Positions 12,990-35,847 of a stretch of DNA of 64,000 nt are shown one piece after another. Source of the stretch: Candidatus Parcubacteria bacterium (GTDB taxonomy: Bacteria; Patescibacteriota; Minisyncoccia; Phycocordibacterales; CAIZLB01); the NCBI GenBank assembly GCA_039795775.1, contig JBDKLC010000005.1:3654-67653 (forward strand), written 5' to 3'. Within the stretch, counting starts at the first letter, position 1. Every line of letters starts with the position of its first letter. The notes beneath the pieces are model-generated. The model saw nothing but the letters and a program-made list of their open reading frames with translations. It ran no database searches and was not told the DNA's origin. The position numbers and the translations under genes were made by a program.

Positions 12990-12996
12990 TACGAAC

Positions 12997-17608: not shown

Positions 17609-17639
17609 ATATGTGTCTATTATACAATATTACGGTCTA

Positions 17640-18518
17640 TTAGATTCGTATCCAGTCTGAAGGAGTGGCATTGGTCGTGTCTACGGTGTGTGATTGAATC
17701 CACTGTTTTGGACCTACAACAACCTTTGATGCTGAAGGGTTAAGCCATGCACCCCACCAACTAAATGAACTGTTGGCGATGATATGGTGTGAACAGTTGC
17801 TCATGAGTACAAGTTCCTCGTATTCTTGAATATCAGGTGATGAGACATAATTGATGGTGATGTCTTTTGTCTGTAGATGTTGCTTGGCCCAGTTTATATC
17901 ATCTGAAAATACAAAAAGCTGAATATTTTTTGATTCTTTCTTTTGAATTTCTTCGATAGCTTTGTAGTAGTAGTCGAGTTGAAGTACGCCATGATGGGCT
18001 GCTGCATGTTTGTTTGTGACATAGTCACCTCGGCGAATATGAAGTGATACTGGTGCGAAGCCGGCTTCTTTTAGTTCTTTTATTTTGAGATACAGAGACT
18101 GTGCAGATACCCCAAGTGGTTTCTTTGGTGTGAAGTCTGATCGGATTGCATCAGCGAAGTCTTTGAAATAATCGTCAGTTTGCCACCAGCCTTCGAGATA
18201 TGAACCGTCTTTTGGTGAGAGTATCGCTGTGTTTGTTTTGTACCAGTTTGTAGCAAAGATCCTGTTTTGTATAATTCTTTTTAATTTATGAAAAGGATTT
18301 TTTGTTTTTGAAATATCAGATACTGATGCTTCAGGGAGTGTAACATTAAAATTAGTGAGTCGAAGAGGACGCACTGTATCGCGGGCGGCTGTGCCGCCCG
18401 CGATATATTCAGTGAGGTCATATGCCACATCCCACCCAGTTCGCAGAGCGATAGTTTTGCCTACTGCATACTGAAACATTTGATTGCCGAGGCCACCTTT
18501 AAGCTTGACGATTATCAT
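17640..18518 (-). CDS. Glycosyltransferase family 11 (alpha-1,2-fucosyltransferase-like)
   Basis: The N-terminal GGLGNQMFQYA motif is diagnostic of GT11/FutC-like enzymes, and the ~290-aa length fits. Confidence 0.8.
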   Translation of the reverse strand: MIIVKLKGGLGNQMFQYAVGKTIALRTGWDVAYDLTEYIAGGTAARDTVRPLRLTNFNVTLPEASVSDISKTKNPFHKLKRIIQNRIFATNWYKTNTAILSPKDGSYLEGWWQTDDYFKDFADAIRSDFTPKKPLGVSAQSLYLKIKELKEAGFAPVSLHIRRGDYVTNKHAAAHHGVLQLDYYYKAIEEIQKKESKNIQLFVFSDDINWAKQHLQTKDITINYVSSPDIQEYEELVLMSNCSHHIIANSSFSWWGAWLNPSASKVVVGPKQWIQSHTVDTTNATPSDWIRI

Positions 18519-19446: not shown

Positions 19447-19460
19447 GCTAGTACTTTACC

Positions 19461-20210
19461 TTATTTTTTTACAAACCAGAATAGTCCACAACCGTATGTT
19501 TCATTGTCTGATTGAGCCTCTGTGGCGTTGGTGATAATACCACCATCTTTTTCCTGTTCTGGGACGAGTGAAAACTCACGAAGTTCGAATTCAGGGAAGT
19601 AGCTGAGGACCTGCTTATAGCTATAGATTCGGTGGGCATTAAACATGATTTTAGGCTTGCCTACAGGTGTTACGAACAAGAGGGAACCCCCTTGTCGTAC
19701 AACGCGTTTAAGCTCATTTATTGCCTTTATATCGCCTTCTGGGTCGATAGGGTCACCGTATCGGCCGAGCCCAATGTGCTCTATCGTATGCATACACGAA
19801 AGTGAGGCCAATTCACTGTCCTGGAAGGGCAGTTTCATGAGGTCGCCTTCTTTGCTTTCTAGGTCTGAAAGGTAAAGAGGAGCTGGTCGATAGTCGTAAA
19901 AATGCACAGGTACAAAGGCTGATACAATGCCACAGAAATAGAGACTTGAAGAAATATCTACATGAAACGCTGGGTTTATCTCTTTTACCTTTCGAGCTGC
20001 CCACGATGTGTGATACACATAGTGCCGGTCAAATCCTGTAAGTCGAGTCTTATCGAAGATCTGTGGAAAGACGTCACTGATGTTTGTAGAAAAACGTTGT
20101 TTCGAATCTCTGTTTCTGTACACGATATAATCGAGTGCGATAAAGAGGAATAATGGAAAATAAATAACTTTTTTTATAAATCTCAGTGTTGATCGAAGTG
20201 ATGATGGCAT
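19461..20210 (-). CDS. Putative SAM-dependent methyltransferase (DUF268-like)
   Basis: LSCMHTIEHIGLGRYGD...GGSLLFVTPVG is reminiscent of the class I MT-like DUF268 family. The assignment is weak. Confidence 0.35.
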   Translation of the reverse strand: MPSSLRSTLRFIKKVIYFPLFLFIALDYIVYRNRDSKQRFSTNISDVFPQIFDKTRLTGFDRHYVYHTSWAARKVKEINPAFHVDISSSLYFCGIVSAFVPVHFYDYRPAPLYLSDLESKEGDLMKLPFQDSELASLSCMHTIEHIGLGRYGDPIDPEGDIKAINELKRVVRQGGSLLFVTPVGKPKIMFNAHRIYSYKQVLSYFPEFELREFSLVPEQEKDGGIITNATEAQSDNETYGCGLFWFVKK

Positions 20211-20220
20211 TGTGGTGAAT

Positions 20221-21165
20221 TTAACTAATAATACGTGTGGCTTTTCGTTTAAGGGAACGGACTATATTAAATGGTTTGTTCCCCAAGTATGCCATACCTA
20301 ACTTAATATATGAAAGTGCGTTAAATGGATGTATTTTGATTGATTTTTTAAGATAATGAATTGCTTGCTTTTGTTCTTTGTTATAAAGATGAAGTCCAGC
20401 AATTGAATGGAGCACATTACTATAACTCGATGGAAATTTTAAAAAAGTATTTTCATATTTTGTAATAATGTGAGTTAAATCTCTGAGACGTTCTTTTGAT
20501 GAGGTTAATATATTTGAAGTATTGTTGTTGTGTATATGATATCGGACAAGCACGTCTGGCAAGAATATATAGGGAATATCTTGATCAATCATTCTCGTAA
20601 CTAGATCAAAATCTGCGAACATCTTAAGTTGTGTATCAAGGTATCCTACTTTTTCTAGTACGGATCTTTTAATACAAAGCATACTAAAGGTATTAAAGTA
20701 TTTCCCAGCAAGCAATTCTTTTTTTGAAAGACTACCTTTTGTTATTTTAACTTTAGCCGTCGTTATTAATCCTGTTAGATCATTAATATGTTCAACATTT
20801 GAAGCAATGAATCCTATTTGTGGATTTAAAGTAAAAAAAGTATGTAGAATTTCTAGTTTGTTTGATCTCCATTCATCGTCATGGTCGAGAAATGCGATAT
20901 AGCTACCTTTCGAAACATCAATACCAACATTTGTAGGAACTGTTGGTCCACCAGAGTTAGTCGTAGTAATTACTTTTATTCGTGAATCTTCAGAACTAAG
21001 CTCAAGTAAAATAGTTGAGGTCTCGTCCTTTGAACCATCATCAATAATAATAAGTTCAAAATCTGAGTACGTTTGTTGAAGTACGCTGGTTACAGTCCTT
21101 CTGATAAATTGTTCACTATTATAAGTAGGAATAATTACACTAAAAAAAGGATTTTTCTGTGACAT
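20221..21165 (-). CDS. Glycosyltransferase family 2
   Basis: FSVIIPTYNSEQFI...IIDDGSKDET...AFLDHDDEW. Confidence 0.85.
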   Translation of the reverse strand: MSQKNPFFSVIIPTYNSEQFIRRTVTSVLQQTYSDFELIIIDDGSKDETSTILLELSSEDSRIKVITTTNSGGPTVPTNVGIDVSKGSYIAFLDHDDEWRSNKLEILHTFFTLNPQIGFIASNVEHINDLTGLITTAKVKITKGSLSKKELLAGKYFNTFSMLCIKRSVLEKVGYLDTQLKMFADFDLVTRMIDQDIPYIFLPDVLVRYHIHNNNTSNILTSSKERLRDLTHIITKYENTFLKFPSSYSNVLHSIAGLHLYNKEQKQAIHYLKKSIKIHPFNALSYIKLGMAYLGNKPFNIVRSLKRKATRIIS

Positions 21166-21169
21166 ATCG

Positions 21170-21703
21170 TTAGTTTAGGAACGGAAGAAGTTGATCTTTT
21201 TCAGAAACAACAGGTGTAGTAACACCCCAGTCTATATCGAGTGTTGGGTCATCAAATCGAATGCCACCTTCAGCAGTTTTTGTGTATTCTTTTGTACATG
21301 CATACAAAAAGTATGCTTCATCTGAGAGCACTGAGAAGCCATGAGCAAATCCAGGTGGTATGTAGATGAAGGTACTGTCTTCACCAGTCAAATCAATTGT
21401 TTGAAACTTTTTGTACGTAGGTGAATCAGATCTCATGTCTACAAAAACATCCCGAACTTTTCCAGAAATAAGATATACAAGTTTACCTTGCGCAAATTCT
21501 CCGTGCTGATAGTGAAGCCCTCGAATCACATCTTTTTTCGAATACGACATGTTGTACTGAGGAAAACTATCAGGTAGTCCGAGTTTCTTAAATTCAGAGA
21601 TTTTTGCCATCTCCATAAAATATCCACGATCATCATGGAATTTGTCAGAAGTAACAATTAATACATCTGGTAAATCTGTCAGAGCTGTAACTTTAAAAGC
21701 CAT
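21170..21703 (-). CDS. rmlC: dTDP-4-dehydrorhamnose 3,5-epimerase-like cupin (RmlC family)
   Basis: DDRGYFME...RGLHYQ...GKLVYLISGKVRDVFVDMR...IYIPPGFAHGF matches RmlC-family signature motifs. Confidence 0.8.
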   Translation of the reverse strand: MAFKVTALTDLPDVLIVTSDKFHDDRGYFMEMAKISEFKKLGLPDSFPQYNMSYSKKDVIRGLHYQHGEFAQGKLVYLISGKVRDVFVDMRSDSPTYKKFQTIDLTGEDSTFIYIPPGFAHGFSVLSDEAYFLYACTKEYTKTAEGGIRFDDPTLDIDWGVTTPVVSEKDQLLPFLN

Positions 21704-21746
21704 AATACTAGTAGTGTATACCGAGGACTAGGCTTTTGCTAGGTCT

Positions 21747-22814
21747 TTACTTGCCGAGAGCTTTGTGGGCAAACAGGGTCTGAAGACGGTTTTTGTATAT
21801 CTCTGTAGATGCAGTATCTGGGAAGGCGACATTTGTATATGGATGCAATTCGAGGGCTTTTTCTATCTGTACCCATGTAGGTTCGATGTCATAGAGGTAT
21901 TCACTCTTGAGGAATCGGAGTGTATGAGGTTTGTGTGAAAATTTGCTGAAGAGTTTGGCAAAAAATGAAGGCTTAGTTTCGTATGTCTCAAGATTGAGGG
22001 TATCGCCATTTTGTGGCAATGGTTTAGTTGGCACCAGAGCTGGGAAGGCAATATAGAATTGCTTGTAGATATCGAGTATCAGAGCGAAATCGGTATATGA
22101 TTTCATATCTTTTGAAACAAGGTGAATGTGCTGCATCGCATAGTCGTATCGAGCGAGCCACAAGTCACGGAGCTCTTTGATCTTTGCGCCTTTTGCTTTG
22201 TGTTCTTCTACAAAGTGATAGAGATGTGCTTCACTATTCATTCGTTTTTCTACAAGCTTTTCAGGATTCATTGAAAGGCAATATTCTTTGAATAAAGCAG
22301 GCTTCATGGCAAAGAGCATGTCATTGTAGTTACCTGGTGCAGCGTGGAGCATTGTGCCATCTGGCAAGATGTAGTCGGGGTTACTTATTACAATATCATC
22401 AGTAGAGTTTGTGAGGAGTTGTGTGAAGTCCGGAAGCTTGTAGAGGATGTGTCGAGATGTGTAATACACTACCCAGTCGTATTGTTTGAGTTGATCACCG
22501 AGTCGGTCGAGTACTGCCATGCACATTTGGAATTCTCCAGCTCCTTTGTTTTTACTACCGAGTGCATTGTTGTTGATGAGAAATTTATATTTCACATCGT
22601 TAGATCCAACGAGTGTTCTGCTGTGATTGTTTTCAAATGACGTGATACTTTCTGTAGTATTTTCTACAACGCAAATATCAGCAACACCTTTTGTTTGTTG
22701 AATGAGATTCCAGAGAGCTACAGCATAGAGTTCTTGTCTGTTATATCTCTGTCGAAATGATGTGTTTGCAGGTTGGTAAGAGGAAAGACAAACAAACAAA
22801 ATTTTATTATTCAT
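21747..22814 (-). CDS. Hypothetical protein in glycan operon (possible glycosyltransferase)
   Basis: 355-aa ORF with no recognisable motif. It is in an operon with glycosyltransferases and the DegT gene. Confidence 0.3.
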   Translation of the reverse strand: MNNKILFVCLSSYQPANTSFRQRYNRQELYAVALWNLIQQTKGVADICVVENTTESITSFENNHSRTLVGSNDVKYKFLINNNALGSKNKGAGEFQMCMAVLDRLGDQLKQYDWVVYYTSRHILYKLPDFTQLLTNSTDDIVISNPDYILPDGTMLHAAPGNYNDMLFAMKPALFKEYCLSMNPEKLVEKRMNSEAHLYHFVEEHKAKGAKIKELRDLWLARYDYAMQHIHLVSKDMKSYTDFALILDIYKQFYIAFPALVPTKPLPQNGDTLNLETYETKPSFFAKLFSKFSHKPHTLRFLKSEYLYDIEPTWVQIEKALELHPYTNVAFPDTASTEIYKNRLQTLFAHKALGK

Positions 22815-22850
22815 GATGATCCCTGACCGGTAATTTGGAGGCGAGTACGA

Positions 22851-23996
22851 TTACGCCTTAAAGTTTTTAACAACCTTAATTATATACGCAACCTCTTTTG
22901 GAGTTAAGCCTGGGAACATAGGAAGGAGAGTGATCTTTTTCCATACAGTGTCAGCTACAGGAAGCTTTCTCTTTTTCATGTACGGCTGGTACATCTTGTA
23001 GAGGTGGTTTGGAATGTAGTGCATGCCAGCGCCAACGCCATTTTCCATCAAATATGCGATGAATTTATCTCGAATAGAAGCATCAACTTTTACCATGAAG
23101 TTGTGAGTAGCATTCCATGCGTATGATTTTTCTACTGGAAGCTCAAGCCATGGAAGGTCTGCGAATGCTTTTTTGTATTGATCGGCGATTGCTCGTCGTC
23201 GTTCGAGGTGAGCAGGAAGCTTTTCGAGCTGAACAAGACCGAGACATGCGTTGATGTCATTCATGTGATATTTGTATCCAAGTTCTTCAACTTCATAGTA
23301 CCAGTGATATCCCTTGTCTGTGATAGTTCGATCGAATGTACTTTTGTTGATACCTAGCCATCGTCGCTTTCGAAGAATCTCATCCCATTTTTTATTGTTG
23401 AATGTGAGTGCACCACCGTCACCTGTTGCAAGGTTTTTTACAGCGTGGAAACTGAAACTTGTGATGTCAGCAACAGAACCAACAGGTTTGCCTTTGTATT
23501 TTGAACCGCATGAATGTGCAGCATCTTCAAGTACAAAAAGTTTATGTTTTTTTGCAATTTTCTTAATCTTGTCTATGTCACAAGGATGACCACCGTAGTC
23601 TACGCAAATAATACCTGCTGTCTTTGGAGTGATCAGTGCTTCAATTTTGTCAGCGTCGATATTGAGAGTGTCTGGTTCAATATCACAGAATACTGGAATA
23701 CCACCTTCGTATAAGATAGCGTGGTTTGTAGAAACGAATGTCATCGGAGTTGTGATGACTTCTTTGCCCTTAATATTAAAAAGTGAGAGAGCAAGGTGAA
23801 GAGCTGATGTTGCTGAGTTGAGAGCAACTGCATGCGGAGCACCCACAAACGCACCGAATTTGTCTTCAAATTCTTTGGTTTTTGGCCCAAGTCCAATCCA
23901 GCCTTTTTTAAAGGATTCTTTTAATGAGTTGAGTTCTCGACTGTCATATGACGGTCGGAAAAGTGGAATCATATTCATATGGGGACATAGTAGCAT
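22851..23996 (-). CDS. DegT/DnrJ/EryC1/StrS-family PLP-dependent sugar aminotransferase
   Basis: NSATSALHLAL...VITTPMTF...VDYGGHPCD...LEDAAHS...SFHAVKNL, where the Lys in HAVK is the PLP lysine. The true start is probably the internal Met (MIPLFRP). Confidence 0.85.
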   Translation of the reverse strand: MLLCPHMNMIPLFRPSYDSRELNSLKESFKKGWIGLGPKTKEFEDKFGAFVGAPHAVALNSATSALHLALSLFNIKGKEVITTPMTFVSTNHAILYEGGIPVFCDIEPDTLNIDADKIEALITPKTAGIICVDYGGHPCDIDKIKKIAKKHKLFVLEDAAHSCGSKYKGKPVGSVADITSFSFHAVKNLATGDGGALTFNNKKWDEILRKRRWLGINKSTFDRTITDKGYHWYYEVEELGYKYHMNDINACLGLVQLEKLPAHLERRRAIADQYKKAFADLPWLELPVEKSYAWNATHNFMVKVDASIRDKFIAYLMENGVGAGMHYIPNHLYKMYQPYMKKRKLPVADTVWKKITLLPMFPGLTPKEVAYIIKVVKNFKA

Positions 23997-24216
23997 GCTT
24001 TATAGGTTTTAAAAATATGGTGATTTTAAGAAAGAATGGGCATATAATTAGGTGTATATTTTATGCAAAAACCCTTCTTTTCGACATTTATACTGAGGGA
24101 ACCAGAGGGTAAACTTCTTTTGCAGTTACGTGACGATGGAAATAGTGACTATTGATGAAATAAAAAAATTAGATCTTGCGTTTGGTCACAATGATCTAAT
24201 TTTAAAAATTGAGGAT

Positions 24217-25899
24217 TTAGTCTAATTGTACAGTCTTGTAGTACGGATTATTCCACGCTGGGTTTCCCTGATCCATGAAGTCGATAGCGTCATAGTTGTA
24301 ACTCTTGAGTCGGTAGTCTGTCCATTCTGCGAAGAACGGTCGGTCCTGGCATACGATACCTGCGATAGCATCGATACCTGCACCTACGTCGATAAATACT
24401 GCGTTGCTGTACTGTCGGAGAAGTGGAAGGAGAGCAATTTTTGAACTGCCAGCTCCAACGAGGAAAATCTTTGCTTTACTGTTTGCGATCTGCGCGCCTA
24501 CTTTTTCTACAAGAGGGAGGATGTTATCGGCTGCGCCTTTTTCTGGCACGCCAATGTAGTCAGTAAATGAATCAGTGCCGAGGTAGTCCTGATATTCTTT
24601 TCGCTGCATAAGTTCCTTGATAAGAGCAACTTTGTTTTCTGATGCGATGATGCCGATTTCGTTTTTGAAATTTCGGAACACCCATTTTGTAGATACGAGA
24701 CCGTACACTGCTTCACTTGGAATAACATCATTTGAAACAATTGAAAGTGCTTTTCGGAGGTATGTGCCTTTTCGTTTGAATGAATAGATGAATGCAATGA
24801 TGCCAGGAATAATGCCAAACCATGTGAGGGGAGTAAGAGCCTTGTCTATTGCATATGCTTTCTTACCATTTTCCATAGGTTTGATACCTAGTCGCAACAG
24901 TCGAGAAATAACTTTTTCTACGAGGTCAACAATGATGAACTTTTTCCAGTTTCGATGTTCGTGTGATTCGAGGTTGAGTGTGATGAGGTCATTTTGCCAG
25001 AACATCGCTCGGAAAAGACCAATGTCGATTTTGTCGTAACCTGTTGTGAGGGCTCGGCGTCCTGGTTTTGCACTACCGATAGCAATTTGTCGGAGGAAGA
25101 AATAGTCGCCGTCACTTGCTCGGAGAATAGACGCGCCTTTACCATTTCGACTTCGTTCGAAAATATAATTTTGTAAATCGATGAATGACTTTTGAAGAGA
25201 TGTTTTTGTGAGACCTGCGTGTGTGAGAGATTTTTTGTGACTTGGATTGTCTGTTGAAATAGTTTGCAAGAGATATGATGAGTCTACTTTTGCGAATCGA
25301 TTCTTCTTGAAGACCATAATATTTTTTGCCCACCAGTTGTAGCCAATGCCCTCGAGTTTGTTTGCAAGCACAGAAGCTAGTGCATCTGATCGTTCTGCCC
25401 AGTAAGTAAAGCCCCGCTCTTCGAGCTTTTTCATAATGTAGCCTTTTGGCTGAGGATTGAGGTGCTGACCGTCATGATCTTCGTGCTGGTTTGACCATGT
25501 GAGGAGGAGAATATCTTGTGTTGCCTTTGTGAGGTTGTCGAGGAAGGCATCTTCGCATTCAGCTGGAATGTGTTCACCAACTTCTGAGCAGTTTACGATT
25601 TCATATTCTTTTTTGAAGGTAAATGGCTTTGAGAGGTCGTCGATATGTACGAAGTCTTTGATACTTGGAGCTGCATACTGTTTTGACCAATCGAAATAGT
25701 CGTAGCCAATGACTTCTGCAGTAGGATACTTATGTTTCCACGCTTCCATAAGACGGCCGTTGTTGCAGCCAAGGTCTGCGAGACTATCGATAGTGCTGAG
25801 GTCAAAGACTTCATCTATAGCTTGGAAGTACGCCATATATGGTCGCATTTCTCGTGTGTATTCAACTTCTTTGTATGTGTCTTTAACTTTTGGGTCCAT
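24217..25899 (-). CDS. Two-domain protein: N-terminal class I SAM-dependent methyltransferase plus C-terminal Rossmann-like domain of unknown function
   Basis: The N-terminus has LADLGCNNGRL...VIGYDY...NCSEVGEHI (MT motifs I and post-I). The C-terminus has KIFLVGAGSSK...AVFIDVGAGIDAIAG, a Gly-rich nucleotide-binding-like signature. It is the first gene of the downstream operon. Confidence 0.4.
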   Translation of the reverse strand: MDPKVKDTYKEVEYTREMRPYMAYFQAIDEVFDLSTIDSLADLGCNNGRLMEAWKHKYPTAEVIGYDYFDWSKQYAAPSIKDFVHIDDLSKPFTFKKEYEIVNCSEVGEHIPAECEDAFLDNLTKATQDILLLTWSNQHEDHDGQHLNPQPKGYIMKKLEERGFTYWAERSDALASVLANKLEGIGYNWWAKNIMVFKKNRFAKVDSSYLLQTISTDNPSHKKSLTHAGLTKTSLQKSFIDLQNYIFERSRNGKGASILRASDGDYFFLRQIAIGSAKPGRRALTTGYDKIDIGLFRAMFWQNDLITLNLESHEHRNWKKFIIVDLVEKVISRLLRLGIKPMENGKKAYAIDKALTPLTWFGIIPGIIAFIYSFKRKGTYLRKALSIVSNDVIPSEAVYGLVSTKWVFRNFKNEIGIIASENKVALIKELMQRKEYQDYLGTDSFTDYIGVPEKGAADNILPLVEKVGAQIANSKAKIFLVGAGSSKIALLPLLRQYSNAVFIDVGAGIDAIAGIVCQDRPFFAEWTDYRLKSYNYDAIDFMDQGNPAWNNPYYKTVQLD

Positions 25900-25954: not shown

Positions 25955-26431
25955 TTAAACTATTTTTAAAATTTTGCAGATGTGATACGTCATATCGTCA
26001 AGGAAGTAGGTGAGTTTTGTATAGAAAGAGTCAGTATGTTCTTTGAGTCGTTTTACTTTTACAAACTCAGCGTCAATGTTTCGCGCGAATAGTCCGTCTG
26101 TAAGCATTTTGTCACCGATGACTACACGTTCTTTTGGATGCTTTGGGTCAATGAGGTCTACGATCTTTTTGTTAGGTTTTCGGAGGTGTGTGGTGAGAAT
26201 AGGAATATTCAATTTTTGTGAGATGGCGAGATTTCGAGCCGGGTTTGGCTTATTTGAACAAAGAAGCACTACATTGTGCTCTGCAAGATCACGAACTTTG
26301 TGCATAGCTGCTTCTTCAATGTCACTACTGTTGTCTGTAGCAATTGTACCGTCGATGTCGAGAATGACAGTTTTGCCAGAAATATTCTGGATGTCTTGGT
26401 CTTTAAAGTAATATTCAGTGTGAGATGACAT
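25955..26431 (-). CDS. HAD-superfamily phosphatase (HAD-IIIA/YqeG-like)
   Basis: VILDIDGTIA (motif I DxDGT), LLCSNK (motif II) and VVIGDKMLTD (motif III/IV). Confidence 0.65.
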   Translation of the reverse strand: MSSHTEYYFKDQDIQNISGKTVILDIDGTIATDNSSDIEEAAMHKVRDLAEHNVVLLCSNKPNPARNLAISQKLNIPILTTHLRKPNKKIVDLIDPKHPKERVVIGDKMLTDGLFARNIDAEFVKVKRLKEHTDSFYTKLTYFLDDMTYHICKILKIV

Positions 26432-26469
26432 AGTTGTATTCAGGAAAAGTTTAGGAATAATATTGATAA

Positions 26470-26832
26470 CTAATTTGTGTGCGGAGCAAAGTAGAAGATC
26501 ATTGTAATGGCCACGATGAGTAATGCATAGCCTACCATTTGCATCGTTGTGATTGTTTCTCCGAGTGATACGTATGCAAATGTGTTAATGATGAGAAGAC
26601 TCATGCCCACCATGATTGGATATGCGACGGTGATAGGGAGTGTTCGTAGAGCGAGAAAGTAGAAGAGGGCATTGAGACCAAAACAAATGAATCCAAGGAG
26701 AAATAGTGCATTTGCTGAAATTGTTTGGAGACTGAATCCATGAAGAACCAAACCTTTTTTTGCACCGAGCTTGAGAAGAACATTTGCAGTTCCATTCAAG
26801 ATGAACGCCACGATGAGGTAAATAATAGACAT
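26470..26832 (-). CDS. SMR/EamA-like 4-TM small transporter (ArnE/ArnF-like putative lipid-linked sugar flippase)
   Basis: 120 aa with four hydrophobic helices. The N-terminus IVAFILNGTANVLLKLGAKK is like ArnE/EmrE-type proteins. Its stop is 3 nt from the GT-C gene. Confidence 0.55.
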   Translation of the reverse strand: MSIIYLIVAFILNGTANVLLKLGAKKGLVLHGFSLQTISANALFLLGFICFGLNALFYFLALRTLPITVAYPIMVGMSLLIINTFAYVSLGETITTMQMVGYALLIVAITMIFYFAPHTN

Positions 26833-26834
26833 GA

Positions 26835-28538
26835 TTATTTTGATTTTATTTTTGTTGAAGTTGCAGATGTCGATGAGGCTCTTGTATCAATGTACTGATC
26901 AGATGTGATTTTTGAGTAGAGCACAAATGGTGATCCTTTTTTCAACAATAACTTTGTACCTTTATATTCTACGAGATTGTAGTTTGCTTTGCACCAGTCT
27001 TCGAGATTTTGTGATGCCCAACTACAGAAATGATTGTTGAACGCAAGATACACAATTACATCAGGTGATTTTTCTTTGAATGTATAGTTGAGGTCGTATT
27101 TGTTATGACCAGGAATACTATACATACCTCGTGGATTTGAAAGCGCTCCAGAAAGGTCAGGGGCAAGCTTTGCGATATGAGGATCCATTTTTCCCAAAGG
27201 GTCGAGAGAATATCGCTGCGAAATATAAGGAACAGTTCCAGCCCAGAATGTAGCTACAGATGCTTTGTCGGTGGTGAGCTCTTTGATAACAAGAGCAGAG
27301 TTTATATTTTCTTTATTGTTTCTTGATTGATATGGTTCGAGTCGTGTGAAGTCGTAGTGATAATCGAATGGAACAAATACGAGAAGAGAACACACAATAG
27401 CACTCATGAAAGCCATGAAGTGATCTGTGCGCATGTTGAATGAATCTTTGAGTCTCGCTGCTGTGACAACGAATGCAATAAAGAAAAGCACAGTATAGGG
27501 AACAGTCATTCGCCAAAATGGTGGCCATGGATCTCCACCAACCCATACTTGGTAGGCACTATAGGCTGCAAAAGATCCAACGAAGAGAGTTATATATGAA
27601 AGTGGACCTCGAAGCAGATTACTTATTTTTTCCTTGAGAGATGAACCAGCTTCGAAAAGATATACAAAGAAGAAGAGAATAATAGGAAGAATGAAGAGTT
27701 GAATTCGATTAAGGAAGGGCTGATAGAATCCAAGGCCATTTTTTACACGGTCGAGAAGTGGCATACCTGTCGCTTTGAGGAGGTATGTGTTTGGAACAGA
27801 GAGACCATAGTAAGAAAGTCGGAACATTTGGTAGCCGATAATAGGGAGTGCAGTAATTGTTGCTTCAATACCAACCATAAGCCAGCCTCTTTTTTCTGAA
27901 AGTTTTTGAAAGAACCGGATGATGTAGAAGAGGGCAATGAAGATTGCTCCTTCAGGACGTGCGAGATACACGAGAGAAAGAAGAACTGAAATCCAAACGT
28001 TTGGTCGCCCTGCTGTGTCCTTATAAAGAGAAAGGTAGATAACACTAAGAATGAGAGTTGTGAGATAGCCTGTTTCCATTCCAAAGACTGACCAATACAT
28101 CACTGGATACCATGCCATTGTGAGAATGACACCGAGAAATACGAGAAAATCATTTCGACGTTCTGCAAGAAGTTTTTCGAGTACTCTTCGAACGAGAAAT
28201 ATATTTGCGATGAGACAAAGAAGTCCCATGATTTGTATTGCGAGTGATGCGTAGTTTTGTCCAAAGAGTTTGATTGCTCCAGCCATCACAAACACCGTGA
28301 GAGGATTTGTGAAGCCTTCAACTTTTTCTCCAATATTCCACACGAGACCATGTCCGTGTGCAAGATTGTCTGCATATCTCATCGAAATCATTGCGTCATC
28401 GAAAAGTACAAAGTGTCGCACGCCGTCGAGTGCAACAAATGATGATCGGTAGATGAGAGTGACTGCAAACAAAACAAAAAGTGTAAAACAGATTTTGAAA
28501 ATTCTGTTATGGGCTGGAGCTGAAAAAAAGTTAAACAT
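26835..28538 (-). CDS. GT-C fold membrane glycosyltransferase (ArnT/PMT-like)
   Basis: 567 aa with more than 10 predicted TM helices. The first periplasmic-loop motif FDDAMISMRYADNLAHGHGLVW...EK...NPL resembles the D-[DE]-x-RYA motif of ArnT (GT83) and PMT (GT39) enzymes. It is adjacent to the ArnE-like and UbiA-family genes. Confidence 0.5.
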   Translation of the reverse strand: MFNFFSAPAHNRIFKICFTLFVLFAVTLIYRSSFVALDGVRHFVLFDDAMISMRYADNLAHGHGLVWNIGEKVEGFTNPLTVFVMAGAIKLFGQNYASLAIQIMGLLCLIANIFLVRRVLEKLLAERRNDFLVFLGVILTMAWYPVMYWSVFGMETGYLTTLILSVIYLSLYKDTAGRPNVWISVLLSLVYLARPEGAIFIALFYIIRFFQKLSEKRGWLMVGIEATITALPIIGYQMFRLSYYGLSVPNTYLLKATGMPLLDRVKNGLGFYQPFLNRIQLFILPIILFFFVYLFEAGSSLKEKISNLLRGPLSYITLFVGSFAAYSAYQVWVGGDPWPPFWRMTVPYTVLFFIAFVVTAARLKDSFNMRTDHFMAFMSAIVCSLLVFVPFDYHYDFTRLEPYQSRNNKENINSALVIKELTTDKASVATFWAGTVPYISQRYSLDPLGKMDPHIAKLAPDLSGALSNPRGMYSIPGHNKYDLNYTFKEKSPDVIVYLAFNNHFCSWASQNLEDWCKANYNLVEYKGTKLLLKKGSPFVLYSKITSDQYIDTRASSTSATSTKIKSK

Positions 28539-28547
28539 ACGGGAGGG

Positions 28548-29582
28548 TTAGAAGAATAATTTGGCCACCTTGAGGATACCTTGTTTCCAAGGTACTCGGT
28601 GAGTTACGCCTGACTGACCTTCAAATTTATGAAGATTGGCGAGGTACCAGTCATAGTTTTTTACAAGAGCTTGTTTGTTTGAGAACTGAGGTTTGTAGCC
28701 AAGTTGTAGTTCTGCTTTTTCGATAGATACAAATGAGTCTTTTGACGCTGTTTCGTACACCCACTTGTAAAGAGGGGAAAGTTTGAGAGCTTCGAGAACT
28801 CGGAGTGTCCAAATAACAGGAGCAGCAGGAAGGCCAATAATCTTTTTTCCAAAGCCTGCTTTGTCGAGCACTGCCTGATAATCTTCTTTCATTGTAGTGA
28901 ATTCTTTTGCACCAATATTGAATGTGTCGTTTGCTTTTTCTTTTTCGAGAGTAGAAGCAAGATAAATAGCATCACAGAGATCATCTACGTCGAGGAGCTG
29001 GTAGCGGTTGTGTCCACTTCCGATCATTGGGAAATTTTTTCCATCTTTTGCCCAATCATAAAAGAGAGCGAATACACCAAGTCGTTCTGGACCAACAAAT
29101 GATTTTGGTCGAATGATAGGAACAATGAGACCTTTATTTCGATATTCGAGACAAGCTTCTTCAGCAAGAATCTTTGCTTTACCGTAAGGACCTACACCAT
29201 CGAGTTTGTCATCTTCTTTGAGAGGATGATGATCTGGAATACCGTACACCGCTGTTGAAGAAATATGTACCACTCGAGGCACATTGTTTGCGAGAGCTTT
29301 TTCTAAAATATTTTTTGTACCGTCTACATCAGTCGTCATGATTTCTTGTTCAGTATAGAGGGGAAGTGCTGCAGCTGTATGAACGACAACATCTACACCT
29401 TTCATGTAGGCATCTATAGTTGCTGCATCTCGAATATCGCCTATCACCGCAGTAATTTTTTCTTTTTCAGGATAGTCGAAAGCTTCTTTGTCGATTGAAA
29501 TAATAGTGTGACCTTTTGCAAGAGCATGTCGAATAAAGTTGATACCGAGGAACCCTGAACCGCCTGTAATTAAGAATTTCAT
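28548..29582 (-). CDS. NAD-dependent epimerase/dehydratase (extended SDR)
   Basis: The N-terminal Rossmann motif is KFLITGGSGFLGINFIRHAL. YGKAK (YxxxK) forms the catalytic dyad. Length is ~344 aa. Confidence 0.8.
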   Translation of the reverse strand: MKFLITGGSGFLGINFIRHALAKGHTIISIDKEAFDYPEKEKITAVIGDIRDAATIDAYMKGVDVVVHTAAALPLYTEQEIMTTDVDGTKNILEKALANNVPRVVHISSTAVYGIPDHHPLKEDDKLDGVGPYGKAKILAEEACLEYRNKGLIVPIIRPKSFVGPERLGVFALFYDWAKDGKNFPMIGSGHNRYQLLDVDDLCDAIYLASTLEKEKANDTFNIGAKEFTTMKEDYQAVLDKAGFGKKIIGLPAAPVIWTLRVLEALKLSPLYKWVYETASKDSFVSIEKAELQLGYKPQFSNKQALVKNYDWYLANLHKFEGQSGVTHRVPWKQGILKVAKLFF

Positions 29583-29603
29583 AATGATGTAGCTAGTTAC
29601 AAA

Positions 29604-30467
29604 TTAATAAAAAATCATACACATAAATATAATCCATCCCAGAGTGGCAACAAGAACAATCGGATCAGAAACAACAGCACGCTCTGGATATTCACTCTTT
29701 GCAGATGTGAATACGATAAATACGTATCGAAGTACACCCAGGAGGACGAAGAATATAGAATATACCGCGATATAAGAGTTGAGAACAAGTACAGAATAAA
29801 GACTATATGAAATTATAGAAAGTGTAGCTGCAATAATAAGAAGTGCTGTGAGAAATTCTGATGTGTAGACATTGAGTACCGCACGTTTTGATTTTCCATT
29901 GAATTCAGCAATACGTTTTCCGACGATAAGAAAGAGTGAAATGAAAATAGTACAAAGAAGAAGCCAGAGAGAAATATGAACACCAGCTGCTTCACCACCA
30001 ATGAGGATTCGAATCAAGAAAAATCCTGAGATGAGGAGTATGTCGATGGTAGCAATGTGCTTGAGATAAAAAGAGTAGGCGATGTTGAGGAGGAAATACG
30101 CAGCAAGATAGTAGGTGATAGCTGGAACTACGTAATGTGTGAGAGCAATAGTAGTGATAAGAAGTACGGCAAACACTTGTAGAGCACGACGTACAGAGAC
30201 GGCTCCAGATGCAATTGGTCGAAACTTTTTCTTGTCATGGAGTTTGTCTTGCTCACGATCTGCGATGTCATTGAGAATATATACGCAGCTTGCAGTAAGT
30301 GAAAAACAAATGAATGCGACAATAACGGATTCTAGTTTTTGAATAAAAAGAAATTCTCTTGCGAAAAAGAGGGGAACAAAGATGAAGAAATTCTTTATCC
30401 AGCTAGTGGGTCGTAGCAGTCGGAGAACGTTGTTCATAGGGATTTGTGATGGAAATAAGTATAACAA
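29604..30467 (-). CDS. UbiA-family prenyltransferase resembling decaprenyl-phosphate phosphoribosyltransferase (DPPR synthase)
   Basis: LRLLRPTSWIKNFFIFVPLFFA and NDIADREQDKLHDKKKFRPIASGAVS match the N-terminal and first Asp-rich motifs I recall for the DPPR-synthase branch (RPxQWxKN...NDxxDxExDxxHxxKxxRPIAxG). It has 8-9 TM helices. Confidence 0.65.
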   Translation of the reverse strand: MLYLFPSQIPMNNVLRLLRPTSWIKNFFIFVPLFFAREFLFIQKLESVIVAFICFSLTASCVYILNDIADREQDKLHDKKKFRPIASGAVSVRRALQVFAVLLITTIALTHYVVPAITYYLAAYFLLNIAYSFYLKHIATIDILLISGFFLIRILIGGEAAGVHISLWLLLCTIFISLFLIVGKRIAEFNGKSKRAVLNVYTSEFLTALLIIAATLSIISYSLYSVLVLNSYIAVYSIFFVLLGVLRYVFIVFTSAKSEYPERAVVSDPIVLVATLGWIIFMCMIFY

Positions 30468-32218: not shown

Positions 32219-33514
32219 TTATGAATTAAATATTATTTTCAAGAGTTTACCTCGAGTATCCTTAAATAGGAAGAGGGAGAGGAAGTTACAGAAATATGAG
32301 ATAAATGTTGCCCAAGCAGCACCAGCGATGCCGTACTTGGGAATGAAGATGAAGTTGAGCACAACGTTCATTGCCATAGCTGAGAATGAAGCAATGAATA
32401 CAGCCTTCTGGTTGTTTTCAGCAAGCAAAAAGTTTTGTGTGAGGTAGGCGAGTGATGTTCCGATACCGGCCCAGATATAAATTTGGAGAATAGGTACTGC
32501 CCCTAGAAACTCCACGCCATATAAGAGCATGATAATTTGTTTTCCAAGAAGCGCCACAGGAAGTGCCACTCCAACAGAAATAAGAACCATAAACAGTCCC
32601 AATCGTTTGAGACGAGCATAGTAAATGTATTCTGATGTTTGTCGCGCATTTACGAGAGCGGGGAACAATGAACCAACAACAAGTCCAGGAATAAAGTACC
32701 ATGCTTCTGCGATTCGAGCAGCAGCGTCGTAAATACCAACTGACTTAGTATCAATAAAGTTTTTGATCATTACTTGATCGATTCGACTATAGATCACCGC
32801 AAATGCACTCGAGAAAAGAAGTGGTAAAGAATTGTAGAGAAGACTTTTTGCGATTTTGTAGTTGAATCTCCAATTGAGGACAGAATCGTAGTATTTGTTT
32901 CGATAGAAAATATAGAAGACTGCATATATAACAGGTTCGAGCATGAATATGATTGTCAAGTAGATGACACCTTTGTTCATGAATACCACGACTAGTTTTA
33001 AAATGTTGAGAAGAACAGATACGTACAGATTGATGAGAGAAGGATACTTTGCCAAAACACTCGCTTGAAACTCATAGGCAACAATATTCCAACCATTGAA
33101 AAGAAACGTCAGAGAAAGAATTGAAATCAACAAGAACGAAATGTCTTGGTGTGATGTATGCCATGCACTTCCAACTGCAATACCGATCATAATGATCCCC
33201 GCAACCATTTTTAAAATAATTGATGTACCGAGGTATTCATTCTTTTTGTCTGGATATTGAATGAGCTCTCTATATAAAATCTGATCTAATCCAAGACTTG
33301 TAAATACAGAGAAGATACCAATATAGCTAATAGAGTAACTAAGGAAGCCATAATTTTCTGGTCCAAGGTAACGCACTACATATGTAGTAACAAAGAAGGA
33401 GATAATAAGACTGAAAATACGAGAAAAGAACATCCAGCCTGCGTTTTTGAGGTATTTCTGAAATCCAGGATTATTGAGCCAAAGTAGGACTTTTTGATAA
33501 AAACTATTGTTCAT
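32219..33514 (-). CDS. wzx: Wzx-like oligosaccharide flippase (MOP superfamily polysaccharide biosynthesis protein)
   Basis: 431 aa with ~12 TM helices. The N-terminus ...KNAGWMFFSRIFSLIISFFVTTYVVRYLGPENYG is typical of Wzx/RfbX. Confidence 0.75.
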   Translation of the reverse strand: MNNSFYQKVLLWLNNPGFQKYLKNAGWMFFSRIFSLIISFFVTTYVVRYLGPENYGFLSYSISYIGIFSVFTSLGLDQILYRELIQYPDKKNEYLGTSIILKMVAGIIMIGIAVGSAWHTSHQDISFLLISILSLTFLFNGWNIVAYEFQASVLAKYPSLINLYVSVLLNILKLVVVFMNKGVIYLTIIFMLEPVIYAVFYIFYRNKYYDSVLNWRFNYKIAKSLLYNSLPLLFSSAFAVIYSRIDQVMIKNFIDTKSVGIYDAAARIAEAWYFIPGLVVGSLFPALVNARQTSEYIYYARLKRLGLFMVLISVGVALPVALLGKQIIMLLYGVEFLGAVPILQIYIWAGIGTSLAYLTQNFLLAENNQKAVFIASFSAMAMNVVLNFIFIPKYGIAGAAWATFISYFCNFLSLFLFKDTRGKLLKIIFNS

Positions 33515-33582: not shown

Positions 33583-35847
33583 ATGAATTCGAACACAGCA
33601 TTACGATACAGTATTATTAGTCTTTTATTCGTTATCCCGTTTGTTCCGCTTATTGTTCTCGGGTCAATGTACTTCCCATATATCACAGGGAAGGCCTTTG
33701 TTTTTAGAACTCTCGTAGAGCTCGCACTCATCTTATATGCTTTTTTAGCTATTCGAGATAAGTCATATTTACCAAAGAAGTCTGCACTCCTTTGGGCTAT
33801 TCTTGGCTTCACTGCTATTCTTGGTCTCGCAACAATCTTCTCAGAAAATCCTTTCCGAAGTTTCTGGAGTAATTACGAACGAATGGAAGGCTATGTAACT
33901 GTTCTTCATTTGCTTGGATACTTTGTACTCCTTGCTGGTGTGTTCACTCGAAAGACATGGTACTGGTTTGCTCATACATCTCTTGCTGCAAGCATCATCA
34001 TTGGCCTTCGAGGTTTGGCTGATGGTCAGACTCGTATTTCAGGAACTCTTGGTAACTCTACATATCTCGGCGTGTATGCAATGCTTCACATCTTTATCGC
34101 TGGTCAATTTATGCTTCGAACTCTTTTCAAAAAAGTATTTTCTGAAGCATGGCCATGGGTTACAGGCTATCTCGTATTCATTGCTTTCAACGCGTTTATT
34201 CTTTACCGAACTGGTACACGAGGTTCATTCCTCGGACTTGTAGCCGGTACAATTGTTACTGCGCTTCTTCTCGCAATCTTTGAACGAACAAATAAAGTAA
34301 TTCGATATACAGGTATCAGTATCCTCGCACTTGTTGTTATCGTTGTCGGATCACTCGGTCTTGCTCGAAACACACAGTTTGTACAACAGTCACAACTTCT
34401 TGCTCGATTCAGTTCACTCATCACTACAGATGTAGGTTCTGTTCTCAAAAATCAGGGATATGCTCGAAGTGTTATTTGGTCAATGGCATACAATGGTTTT
34501 AAAGAACGACCAGTTCTCGGTTGGGGTCAGGACAACTTCAACTATGTATTCGCAAAGTACTATGATCCACGAATGTACAATCAGGAACAGTGGTTCGATC
34601 GAAGTCACAACGTATTCTTTGATTGGCTCATTGCTGGTGGTATCTTAGGTCTTCTTTCATACCTCTCACTCTTTGCAGCATTGCTGTATCTTCTCTGGAG
34701 AAAACAAAATCCAAACGTACAAGAACCATGGCTCTTTACTGAAAAGGCTGTGCTTACTGGACTTCTCGTCGCATATTTTATTCACAATCTCTTTGTGTTT
34801 GATCACCTTGTAAGTTACCTTATCTTCTTTGCTCTCTTGGCATATGTACACAACCGAAGTACAACATTAGCGACTGACAGCAGAAATGCTGGCGCTCTTA
34901 TTGAAAATGAAGGTACACAATATGCAGTAGCAGGACTTATTGGTGTTCTTCTTCTCGGAGCAATGTATGTAATTGTTATTAAGCCGTATTCAGTTTCAGC
35001 GAGTCTCATCCGAGCACTTCAAGCGCAGGTAGGAGGTACAGATTCAAGAGGAAATCGAATTCCTGCAGATTATAAAAAAGCTCTCGCAGAATTTAAAAAT
35101 GTATTTTCGATGAAAACATTTGGAAGTATTGAAGCTCGAGAACGATTGTCTGAAGTTGCTGGTGCTGCCGTAGCTGCAACAACTCTCGATACAGATACTA
35201 AAGTTGGATTCGTACAACTTACTCAGGATGAGTACAAGAAGCAGTTTGCAGAAACAGGAGCAGATCCTCGACCTCCACTCTTCTATGGATTGTTCTTGTC
35301 TCGAATAGGACAGACAGATGCTGCGTTGGTACAGATTCAGCGAGCTCTCGAACTTTCTCCAAAAAAACAATCATTCATCTTCCAAACAGCACTCTTGCAC
35401 TATCAGAAAGGAGAATTTGCAAAGGCCGTTGAATATGCAAAGAAAGGATATGAAGAAGAACCAGCATATAATGAAGCACTTGTCATTTATGCAGCTACAT
35501 TGATTTATAACAACCAGAGTGACATTGCAGAAAAAGAAATCGAAGCTGCGAAAGCTCGAGGTGTTGATGTAACAACTGACGAACGAATTCTCCAGGCGTA
35601 TGTTGAGAAAAAACAATTTGGAAGAATTCTCTCTCTGGTGAAGAAACAAGTAGAAGCAGATCCAAAAAATCCGCAGCTTCATGTTTCTCTCGCTGCAGCA
35701 TATTTAAAAGTGAATGATCGAAAGAACGCTATCAAAGAAATTCAGGAAGCAATCAAAATTGAGCCAGCATTCAAAGCTCAAGGAGAATCATTCATCAAAG
35801 AAATTCAAGCGGGAAGAGATCCATCACAAGCCGTACCAGCAAAATAA
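33583..35847 (+). CDS. O-antigen ligase/polymerase-like (Wzy_C) membrane protein fused to C-terminal TPR repeats
   Basis: The N-terminal ~430 aa are polytopic with an O-antigen-ligase-like core. The C-terminal ~300 aa contain TPR-like helical repeats (ALELSPKKQSFIFQTALLHYQKGEFAKAVEYAKKGYEEEP...). Confidence 0.65.
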   Translation: MNSNTALRYSIISLLFVIPFVPLIVLGSMYFPYITGKAFVFRTLVELALILYAFLAIRDKSYLPKKSALLWAILGFTAILGLATIFSENPFRSFWSNYERMEGYVTVLHLLGYFVLLAGVFTRKTWYWFAHTSLAASIIIGLRGLADGQTRISGTLGNSTYLGVYAMLHIFIAGQFMLRTLFKKVFSEAWPWVTGYLVFIAFNAFILYRTGTRGSFLGLVAGTIVTALLLAIFERTNKVIRYTGISILALVVIVVGSLGLARNTQFVQQSQLLARFSSLITTDVGSVLKNQGYARSVIWSMAYNGFKERPVLGWGQDNFNYVFAKYYDPRMYNQEQWFDRSHNVFFDWLIAGGILGLLSYLSLFAALLYLLWRKQNPNVQEPWLFTEKAVLTGLLVAYFIHNLFVFDHLVSYLIFFALLAYVHNRSTTLATDSRNAGALIENEGTQYAVAGLIGVLLLGAMYVIVIKPYSVSASLIRALQAQVGGTDSRGNRIPADYKKALAEFKNVFSMKTFGSIEARERLSEVAGAAVAATTLDTDTKVGFVQLTQDEYKKQFAETGADPRPPLFYGLFLSRIGQTDAALVQIQRALELSPKKQSFIFQTALLHYQKGEFAKAVEYAKKGYEEEPAYNEALVIYAATLIYNNQSDIAEKEIEAAKARGVDVTTDERILQAYVEKKQFGRILSLVKKQVEADPKNPQLHVSLAAAYLKVNDRKNAIKEIQEAIKIEPAFKAQGESFIKEIQAGRDPSQAVPAK

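Follow-up and report, generated by a model that had tools for sequence, protein, structure and literature searches.

A probable module for the synthesis, flipping and transfer of a lipid-linked pentofuranose in a Parcubacteria surface-glycan locus

The locus described here raises the question of whether five adjacent genes in a bacterium of the candidate phyla radiation (CPR, or Patescibacteria) assemble a pentofuranose on a polyprenyl-phosphate carrier and use it outside the cytoplasm, and if so which pentose is made. The genes lie on contig JBDKLC010000005.1 of a Candidatus Parcubacteria genome (assembly GCA_039795775.1), in a stretch of 64,000 nucleotides (positions 3,654 to 67,653) that we call the window and along which all positions are counted. 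A scan of the window for open reading frames (ORFs) gives the module as five co-oriented ORFs on the minus strand, 25955-30467. An original prediction made from the sequence had proposed a lipid-linked pentose donor for these genes. Our analysis supports this in silico, and the tests that could refute it, on the clade of the UbiA protein, the homology of the putative glycosyltransferase and a possible transcript boundary, were run without any of them doing so. We consider it likely that the module serves the synthesis, flipping and transfer of a polyprenyl-phosphate-linked pentofuranose donor, within a Parcubacteria surface-glycan locus.

The pathway that we infer, every step of it from homology and gene context, would start at the cytoplasmic face of the membrane, where a UbiA-type enzyme would move 5-phosphoribosyl from phosphoribosyl pyrophosphate (PRPP) onto polyprenyl phosphate. 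A phosphatase of the haloacid dehalogenase (HAD) superfamily, type HAD-IIIA, would take off the 5'-phosphate to give polyprenyl-P-ribofuranose. An extended short-chain dehydrogenase/reductase (SDR), probably with bound NAD+, would then epimerise the ribose via a keto intermediate, and a 120-aa four-helix protein resembling the small multidrug resistance (SMR) family, presumably a dimer, would flip the lipid-linked sugar outward. Finally, an AftB-like membrane glycosyltransferase of the GT-C fold would pass the pentofuranose to an extracytoplasmic acceptor, which is most plausibly the glycan that nearby genes assemble, those for Wzx, Wzy_C-TPR and the Leloir glycosyltransferases, with the DegT, GT2 and GT11 genes downstream.

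The description of the locus as five consecutive co-oriented genes spaced by 3-56 nt was essentially right. All the ORFs are found on the minus strand, the spacing inside the module is 21, 9, 2 and 38 nt, and 55 nt separate it from the next co-oriented gene; the sequence strings quoted with that description (LRLLRPTSWIKNFFIFVPLFFA, NDIADREQDKLHDKKKFRPIASG and FDDAMISMRYADN) are likewise all present. The same locus was also recovered in an independent Logan assembly. A consensus scan found 8 terminator-like sites against 6.4 expected from shuffled sequence, and the three inside the module are weak hairpins, all within coding sequence, so that no transcript boundary splitting the five genes is evident. 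Such sites are no commoner than in shuffled sequence, and the five genes are taken, by inference, to form one operon. The same five genes occur in identical order in three other species-level CPR genomes (L002-L004), and the genes for UbiA, SDR, SMR-like and HAD proteins recur in Peregrinibacteria and other Patescibacteria loci, which argues that their adjacency is not due to chance.

Phosphoribosyltransferase, phosphatase and four-helix protein

The first gene of the module (29604..30437, minus strand) encodes 277 aa when read from the ATG at 30437, which is also the start in the database protein P0001; an in-frame TTG upstream, at 30467, would give 287 aa. Pfam matches it as UbiA with 79.8 bits and resolves the general family only. 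Against the NCBIfam models of decaprenylphosphoryl-5-phosphoribose synthase (DPPRS) it scores 201.8 bits (NF008977, equivalog cut-off 234) and 197.5 bits (NF008978, cut-off 207), and the HAD-UbiA fusion model NF006088 matches with 181.6 bits over the UbiA portion. The remaining UbiA subfamily models, for heme O synthase (CtaB), 4-hydroxybenzoate prenyltransferase, chlorophyll synthase (ChlG) and GGGP-type enzymes (DGGGPS), reach at most 41 bits. In the PDB the best match is Rv3806c of Mycobacterium tuberculosis (8j8j, E 1.4e-41), and the next is chlorophyll synthase at 4e-6. With about 200 bits on one side, at most 41 on the other and Rv3806c as the top PDB match, the original assignment of this protein to the DPPR synthases rather than to MenA, UbiA, CtaB or DGGGPS holds. 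A Peregrinibacteria homologue is already named 'decaprenyl-phosphate phosphoribosyltransferase' by the NCBI pipeline.

The structure paper on Rv3806c gives the residues for Mg2+, ribose, 5-phosphate, pyrophosphate and decaprenyl phosphate (PMC10994848). Comparing these residues is a specific test, because ordinary UbiA prenyltransferases do not share the phosphoribose-binding sites of Rv3806c (PMC10994848). We mapped the ligand-binding list of that paper, together with D74 and D81 of the Asp-rich motif, onto the window protein by a HMMER alignment. Twelve of the 15 residues are identical (R22, K28, Y70, N73, D74, D77, D81, K87, R90, Y138, K143 and K191), and the protein thereby retains N73, D74, D77 and D81 of the NDxxDxxxD motif for Mg and PRPP as well as the K/R pyrophosphate cluster. 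The three differing positions are Q135, which is N here and belongs with the conserved K28 and Y70 to the 5-phosphate/ribose residues; Y157, which is F, a variant that occurs in some mycobacteria (PMC10994848); and K208, which is A and lies in a K/R-rich loop. Profiles and residues together support the prediction of a PRPP-dependent polyprenyl-phosphate phosphoribosyltransferase, clearly in the clade of DPPRS and its polyprenyl-phosphate counterparts (PPPRS).

The last gene (25955..26431, minus strand, 158 aa) encodes the candidate polyprenyl-P-ribose-5-phosphate 5'-phosphatase. It matches the Pfam family PGP_phosphatase (PF09419) with 34.2 bits, above the cut-off of 20.4, and stays below the cut-offs of TIGR01668 (YqeG; 43.7 against 89.1 bits) and TIGR01662 (35.2 against 44.6), and its best match among solved structures has an E-value of 0.24. 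The sequence holds HAD motifs I-IV as DIDGT, Ser/Thr, Lys and GDKMLTD (consensus DxDGT and GDxxxTD). HMMER, run in full against 1.84 billion cluster representatives, returned 339 relatives at E <= 1e-3, so the family is small and apparently dedicated. What ties it to the first enzyme is gene fusion, as 20 of the best 150 among these 339 representatives are natural fusions of an N-terminal HAD to a UbiA domain of the window type (for example P0063 and P0100, in which the identity to the window HAD is 37-38%). These Rosetta-stone fusions are strong evidence that the phosphatase acts together with the phosphoribosyltransferase, and they back the earlier suggestion that a HAD enzyme takes the place of the PAP2 phosphatase. 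One further protein among the best 150 is fused to Wzx (P0369, 565 aa). Separately, in the Paceibacteria relative L002 a HAD and a Wzx-type polysaccharide flippase are read as a single ORF of 571 aa (11992-13707).

Between the genes of the GT-C and the phosphatase lies that of the candidate polyprenyl-P-pentose flippase (26470..26832, minus strand). At about 120 aa with four hydrophobic segments it fits the size of SMR proteins. All its Pfam matches are below the gathering thresholds (EamA 24.9 bits, cut-off 28.2; Multi_Drug_Res 20.8, cut-off 23.7; and a weak TMEM234), and the NCBIfam models QacE, ArnF and ArnE give 23-28 bits (ArnF 26.9, cut-off 99; ArnE 23.2, cut-off 92). The glutamate E14 in the first transmembrane helix is a significant residue of EmrE, and inspection of the window protein found no equivalent of it. 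Of the resemblance to SMR, ArnE and ArnF that had been claimed, 'SMR-like' stands, whereas ArnE/ArnF membership is not demonstrated by scores that lie below every curated SMR, ArnE and ArnF cut-off. The protein is 29% identical to the SMR gene product of a locus in Rhizobium sp. CCGE531 that is among the candidate pentofuranose systems of Kelly et al. (PMC11127046).

The AftB-like transferase and the four-gene cassette

The largest protein of the module (26835..28538, minus strand, 567 aa) has no Pfam match. Its single NCBIfam match is to the terminal beta-(1->2)-arabinofuranosyltransferase model NF041481 (E 2.5e-10, 39.1 bits, cut-off 1050), and in the PDB AftB (9dlf, E 6e-8) is the only credible match, the other listed matches having an E-value of 1.5. 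A profile of 31 homologues found AftB in the PDB at E 6e-18 and no other GT-C. An AlphaFold2 model built on the same 31-homologue alignment has a predicted local distance difference test (pLDDT) score of 93.3 and a predicted template modelling (pTM) score of 0.92. Searched against the PDB with Foldseek it retrieves AftB first (E 1.3e-10, TM 0.58/0.54), followed by ArnT, ALG12/ALG9, OST/PglB/AglB and AftA. In the model D47 and D48 open a helix at 47-60 just after the first transmembrane helix, which puts the DD motif at a juxtamembrane helix.

In AftB, D62 of the DD motif is an essential catalytic residue and the proposed nucleophile of a retaining mechanism, and T91, E172, R221, T274 and R372 contact the donor analogue (PMC12041299). 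All six are identical in the window protein, where D62/T91/E172/R221/T274/R372 correspond to D48/T77/E155/R194/T251/R343. Across the 31 homologues D47, D48, R194 and R343 do not vary, and E155 hardly does. We therefore found the expected ArnT/PMT/Aft homology in a more specific form, as a similarity to AftB in sequence, fold and residues. By these measures the protein is predicted to have a GT-C fold and to be a distant relative of AftB, not its orthologue. A retaining (beta-linking) mechanism as in AftB is plausible because the nucleophile and the donor-binding residues are all kept.

The transferase family has more than 1500 homologues, and its 571 loci among GTDB species representatives span Chloroflexota, Myxococcota, Acidobacteriota, Proteobacteria and others; in the majority of these genomes the gene stands by itself. 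We surveyed the neighbourhoods of 80 GTDB loci (81 in the count of neighbour families). A UbiA gene adjoins the transferase in three CPR loci and in L010, L019 and L068. Outside the UbiA-adjacent loci no neighbour family recurs, the commonest being found in 10 of 81 loci and unrelated, so that guilt by association is limited to CPR and a few other loci. Outside CPR, L010 (Poriferihabitaceae) and L068 (Kiloniellales) have the transferase followed directly by homologues of DPPRS, DprE1 and DprE2, and a plasmid of Chondrinema (L089) has a distant family member beside DPPRS-DprE1-DprE2. A fusion of a UbiA fragment to the transferase also exists (P0209).

In L010 (8825-14693) the AftB-like protein is read in one ORF of 717 aa, the N-terminal part of which is a partial UbiA domain, and DPPRS, DprE1 and DprE2 follow; ahead of it stands a 204-aa ORF, in a stretch matching the HAD-UbiA fusion protein of Rhizobium CCGE531. 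Such an arrangement would amount to a compact and canonical arabinofuranose locus outside Actinobacteria.

Within Patescibacteria it is the other four genes that travel together. In the Peregrinibacteria locus L082 the order UbiA-SDR-SMR-HAD leads into GT2, Bac_transf and Wzy_C/TPR genes and is preceded by genes for a PMT_2 protein and for large, uncharacterised membrane proteins. L084 has UbiA-SDR-HAD-SMR and then a 393-aa protein, L090 has SMR-HAD::UbiA-SDR-DUF6798, and in L091 UbiA-SDR-HAD lies between PMT_2 GT-Cs. No similarity to the window transferase is detectable in the DUF6798 and DUF6044 proteins. The conserved unit is thus a four-gene donor cassette, UbiA-SDR-SMR-HAD, and the large membrane protein is interchangeable, because the loci pair the cassette with unrelated large membrane proteins (DUF6798, PMT_2 or the 393-aa protein).

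A complete analogous module was also seen on an unannotated 6.6-kb gut contig from human faeces labelled 'Bacteriophage sp.' (MT837543.1, our L087), at 898-5419. It consists of a DPPRS-like UbiA that is 48% identical to a Bacteroidota DPPRS, a separate HAD (PF12710), an SMR/EamA-like protein of 118 aa, an SDR epimerase and a DUF6044 protein of 565 aa, and this context suggests that DUF6044 is a GT-C-type pentofuranosyltransferase.

Known systems and the identity of the pentose

The idea that such a module would be without precedent outside Actinobacteria is incorrect. Kelly et al. (PNAS 2024) characterised the pentofuranose system of Citrobacter youngae O1/O2, in which a HAD phosphatase goes together with one SDR epimerase and a four-helix flippase candidate, and described its pathway logic as widespread (PMC11127046). 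There ORF15 is a HAD phosphatase, which removes the ribose 5-phosphate, fused to a UbiA-type polyprenyl-P phosphoribosyltransferase (PRP::PPPRS); ORF14 is a putative flippase with four helices that resembles EmrE/ArnE; ORF12, a GT-C, is the founder of CAZy family GT136 and promiscuous for ribofuranose and xylofuranose; and ORF13 of serotype O2 is a single SDR that turns the side-chain ribofuranose into xylofuranose (PMC11127046). PPPRS, HAD phosphatase and GT-C were shown biochemically to add ribofuranose, ORF13 converts the donor to the xylofuranose form, and homologues of ORF13 are found in xylofuranose systems where those of DprE1/E2 are found in arabinofuranose systems (PMC11127046).

In its logic and in the classes of its proteins the window module agrees with these three-component systems, which have a PPPRS, a HAD 5'-phosphatase, an optional single SDR epimerase that sets the pentose, a small four-helix flippase candidate and an extracytoplasmic GT-C that acts on a finished glycan. 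It has PPPRS, flippase candidate and GT-C in one co-oriented cluster, an arrangement kept in L002-L004. Its SDR (35%) and SMR-like protein (29%) have homologues in Rhizobium CCGE531, and the HAD::UbiA fusions of its phosphatase family parallel the PRP::PPPRS fusion of C. youngae ORF15. It differs in that the phosphatase, in the known systems usually fused to the PPPRS, has a gene of its own and is of the HAD-IIIA YqeG/PGP type (PF09419), not PF12710 and, in the NCBIfam search, without a match to the N-terminal part of the fusion model NF006088; we regard it as a probable functional analogue of the PRP phosphatase from a different HAD subfamily. The transferase is AftB-like and has no similarity to the candidate GT-C of Rhizobium CCGE531, used as a proxy for C. 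youngae ORF12/GT136 (E 0.11), and it may form a beta (retaining) and not an alpha linkage. The host, too, is a CPR bacterium, a group that neither the paper nor its supplement names.

Other known systems are alike in part. The mycobacterial and corynebacterial pathway to decaprenylphosphoryl arabinose (DPA) begins with a homologous enzyme (Rv3806c) and ends with a homologous transferase (AftB), both with their functional residues kept in the window, and AftB (Rv3805c) and DPPRS (Rv3806c) are encoded side by side in M. tuberculosis. The window module has a HAD instead of the PAP2 phosphatase (Rv3807c), a single extended SDR instead of DprE1 (an FAD oxidase) with DprE2, and an SMR-like flippase candidate, and its acceptor is certainly not arabinogalactan or lipoarabinomannan. 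In the D-arabinofuranosylation of group IV pilin in P. aeruginosa (PPPRS, TfpW), also mentioned by Kelly et al. (PMC11127046), a DPPRS homologue outside Actinobacteria likewise makes a polyprenyl-P-pentofuranose for a periplasmic GT-C-type enzyme, whereas that system, according to the papers, keeps homologues of DprE1/DprE2 and a non-HAD phosphatase. The lipid A aminoarabinose system (ArnT, ArnE-ArnF) is alike in using a pentose donor linked to undecaprenyl-P, flippase subunits that are small and have four helices, and a transferase of the GT-C type, and the likeness extends to ArnT being the second-best fold match and to the weak ArnE/ArnF profile matches. Its donor, however, is made from UDP-Ara4N by a GT2 enzyme and not from PRPP by a UbiA enzyme, and the four-helix protein of the window comes from a single gene and lies far below the ArnE/ArnF cut-offs.

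The kind of pathway is thus already known, including precedents for a HAD in place of PAP2 and for one SDR as epimerase. New here are the CPR host, the HAD-IIIA phosphatase of YqeG/PGP type, the AftB-like GT-C and an SDR that is 73-85% identical across phyla; searches of a library of papers for this pathway in Patescibacteria found nothing relevant.

The SDR (28548..29582, minus strand, 344 aa; Pfam Epimerase, 137.9 bits) is the candidate polyprenyl-P-ribofuranose epimerase and would decide which sugar is made. Its motifs GGSGFLG, SST and YGKAK, corresponding to GxxGxxG and the Ser/Thr-Tyr-Lys residues, are kept in all aligned homologues. Dehydratases of this superfamily carry the acid/base motif DEVYG. 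The top PDB matches of the window SDR are dehydratases, but after the catalytic Ser/Thr it reads SSTAVYG, that is AVYG and not the TDE/DEVYG of dehydratases, and a role as 4,6-dehydratase was rejected. The best NCBIfam matches are HpnA and OleD, both SDRs with lipid substrates. The gene lies directly downstream of UbiA in all the CPR cassettes examined (L001-L004, L082-L085, L090 and L091). A 35% identity over the full length, and a common C-terminal tail HRxPxKQxIL, connect it to SDR2 of the Rhizobium CCGE531 locus, the gene of which overlaps an SMR gene. Among the CPR loci the SDR is 72-79% identical, compared with 48-60% for UbiA, 53-65% for the GT-C, 48-66% for the SMR-like protein and 37-45% for the HAD, and more than 120 cluster representatives are 73-85% identical to it, including Chloroflexota and proteins with names from Anaerolineae, Roseiflexaceae and Gracilibacteria. 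No other protein of the module comes near this degree of conservation.

When DprE1 and DprE2 of Chondrinema were used as tblastn queries, neither the 64-kb window nor the CPR loci L002-L004, L082, L084 and L086 gave a credible match, the sole match being one of 37 bits over 76 residues at window 63520-63747. In CPR the SDR sits directly after the phosphoribosyltransferase, in the slot held elsewhere by DprE1/DprE2 beside related GT-Cs. Both observations are consistent with the proposal that a single SDR replaces DprE1/DprE2. For the final donor, arabinofuranose through epimerisation at C2 is a candidate that we rate at somewhat short of even; xylofuranose through epimerisation at C3 is doubtful, and ribofuranose left unchanged, or other chemistry, is equally so. 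The donor site, which resembles that of AftB, and the presence of DprE1/E2 beside related GT-Cs outside CPR favour arabinofuranose. As a tentative proposal, which we think more likely wrong than right, the SDR would be a single-protein, redox-neutral polyprenyl-P-ribose 2'-epimerase replacing DprE1/DprE2, and together with AftB-type retaining GT-Cs this would imply that envelope glycans with D-arabinofuranose, produced without FAD, are widespread in CPR and probably in Chloroflexota. DprE1 depends on an external acceptor of electrons, for example menaquinone or O2. A redox-neutral epimerase of one protein would therefore be suited to fermentative, quinone-less bacteria.

The same evidence can be read in other ways. 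The pathway may be as proposed with the SDR acting as a C3 epimerase like C. youngae O2 ORF13, so that the donor is polyprenyl-P-xylofuranose and not arabinofuranose. The only characterised single-SDR epimerase in such a system does yield xylofuranose, the reported division between ORF13 homologues in xylofuranose systems and DprE1/E2 in arabinofuranose systems (PMC11127046) points the same way, and the window has one SDR without DprE1/E2. Set against this, the partner GT-C is AftB-like and keeps the residues that contact the arabinofuranose analogue, and related GT-Cs outside CPR adjoin DprE1/DprE2, the arabinofuranose route, although the promiscuity of ORF12 for ribofuranose and xylofuranose means that the identity of the GT-C constrains the sugar weakly. 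We hold this alternative to be possible and no better than our own tentative proposal. It is unlikely, in our view, that the SDR stands outside the pentose pathway altogether, as a housekeeping or nucleotide-sugar enzyme merely beside UbiA in CPR, with the module delivering unmodified ribofuranose. Such a role would fit its conservation across phyla, far above that of its operon partners, and the other nucleotide-sugar genes in the surrounding locus, as well as the stand-alone orthologues and solved relatives described below. The gene nevertheless follows UbiA directly in every CPR cassette examined, even when gene order and GT-C differ; the protein lacks the dehydratase acid/base pair and matches HpnA and OleD best; and its Rhizobium homologue with the same C-terminal tail lies beside an SMR gene in a locus of pentofuranose type. 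The most drastic alternative makes the UbiA protein an ordinary prenyltransferase for quinone, heme O, chlorophyll or ether lipid synthesis and the cluster unrelated to lipid-linked pentoses. Pfam identifies the general UbiA family only, and many homologues are called '4-hydroxybenzoate polyprenyltransferase' in the automatic annotation of JGI. We consider this very improbable, given that the profiles of UbiA, CtaB, ChlG and DGGGPS fall far short of the DPPRS score, that the PRPP-specific residues are kept, and that genes for a phosphatase, a flippase-like protein and GT-Cs are its neighbours or fusion partners; an ordinary UbiA, MenA, CtaB or DGGGPS function was rejected on the profile scores.

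Several results weigh against a pentofuranose donor module as such. The UbiA protein scores just under both DPPRS equivalog cut-offs, and the HAD and the SMR-like protein are under most curated family cut-offs. The closest solved relatives of the SDR are nucleotide-sugar enzymes (dTDP-glucose 4,6-dehydratases and GalE), and orthologues of about 75% identity stand alone, with UbiA and GT-C genes far off, on L093 and L096, which bear the names of Anaerolineaceae and 'Spirillospora' metagenome-assembled genomes, and on L095, so the SDR may have a role apart from the pentose pathway. In 74 of the 80 GTDB loci there is no UbiA within 10 kb of the GT-C homologue, so membership in the GT-C family alone does not prove the donor, and only 2 of those 74 loci have SDR matches, which are weak and 3 kb distant. 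Finally, a search of the 64-kb window for PRPP synthase motifs gave no match, a result for the window that says nothing on the whole genome.

The surrounding glycan locus and the meaning of the module

The genes around the module are those of a surface glycan. Upstream are a Wzx-type polysaccharide flippase (32219..33514, minus strand; Pfam Polysacc_synt on the identical gene in L001) and a Wzy_C membrane protein, O-antigen ligase/PglL-like, with C-terminal TPR (33583..35847, plus strand; Pfam Wzy_C and TPR on L001). L082 and L090 likewise have a similar Wzy_C/TPR gene along with the cassette, and the protein may attach the glycan that the GT-C would decorate. Downstream, co-oriented glycan-synthesis genes run over 16817..25899 on the minus strand and encode a DegT aminotransferase, a dTDP-sugar isomerase/epimerase, two GT2 enzymes, a DUF268 protein, a GT11 enzyme and a 560-aa protein. 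This last protein (24217-25899, minus strand) is encoded immediately after the HAD. It shows a weak signature of SAM-methyltransferases at the N-terminus and a very weak WecG/TagA-like stretch near the C-terminus, and it is not kept with the cassette in other loci.

Between a CmcI-like gene and UbiA lies a GC-rich island (30650-31160) with 58-63% GC compared with about 40% in the host genome. It is identical in two independent assemblies, the second being Logan, and is therefore not an assembly artefact. It holds an ORF of 131 aa on the opposite strand (30697-31092, plus strand; GC by codon position 0.70/0.48/0.58), with no Pfam match and no counterpart in related CPR loci, followed by a GC-rich 15-bp hairpin at 31121-31153. 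On the island, which may represent a small gene of foreign origin, Rfam gave only sub-threshold hairpin or miRNA-like noise. A perfect 20-bp inverted repeat with a 7-nt loop (31221-31267, CGTACAAAGTAAAAAGTCGG...CCGACTTTTTACTTTGTACG) lies a short way downstream of the CmcI-like gene; its Rfam matches are sub-threshold, miRNA-like hairpins only, and it is probably a bidirectional terminator.

Elsewhere the window begins with an ORF of 2301 aa (1517-8422, plus strand) and carries central carbon genes at 54963-63201, for GAPDH, a PfkB-family sugar kinase, a class II FBP aldolase and a transketolase that is split into an N-terminal half (58274-59170) and a C-terminal half (59367-60377). Pfam on ten other window ORFs identified glycolysis and transketolase genes and no prs. 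The transketolase could supply ribose-5-P for PRPP.

CPR bacteria are mostly uncultured episymbionts, and their surfaces mediate attachment to the host. To our knowledge almost nothing is known of their envelope glycans. The locus predicts a CPR surface glycan that would be decorated with pentofuranose from a lipid carrier, and the compact, highly conserved cassette of UbiA, SDR, SMR-like and HAD genes could serve to find such glycans by sequence. The main question that it raises is whether the conserved SDR is a one-enzyme 2'-epimerase. If it is a 3-epimerase of the ORF13 type, the module would simply carry the three-component paradigm of 2024 over to a new phylum. The two-enzyme synthesis of the arabinofuranose donor is a leading drug target in tuberculosis. 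If the SDR is indeed a one-enzyme 2'-epimerase, it would represent a new biochemical route to that donor, and the retaining GT-C chemistry of the AftB type would extend well beyond mycobacteria.

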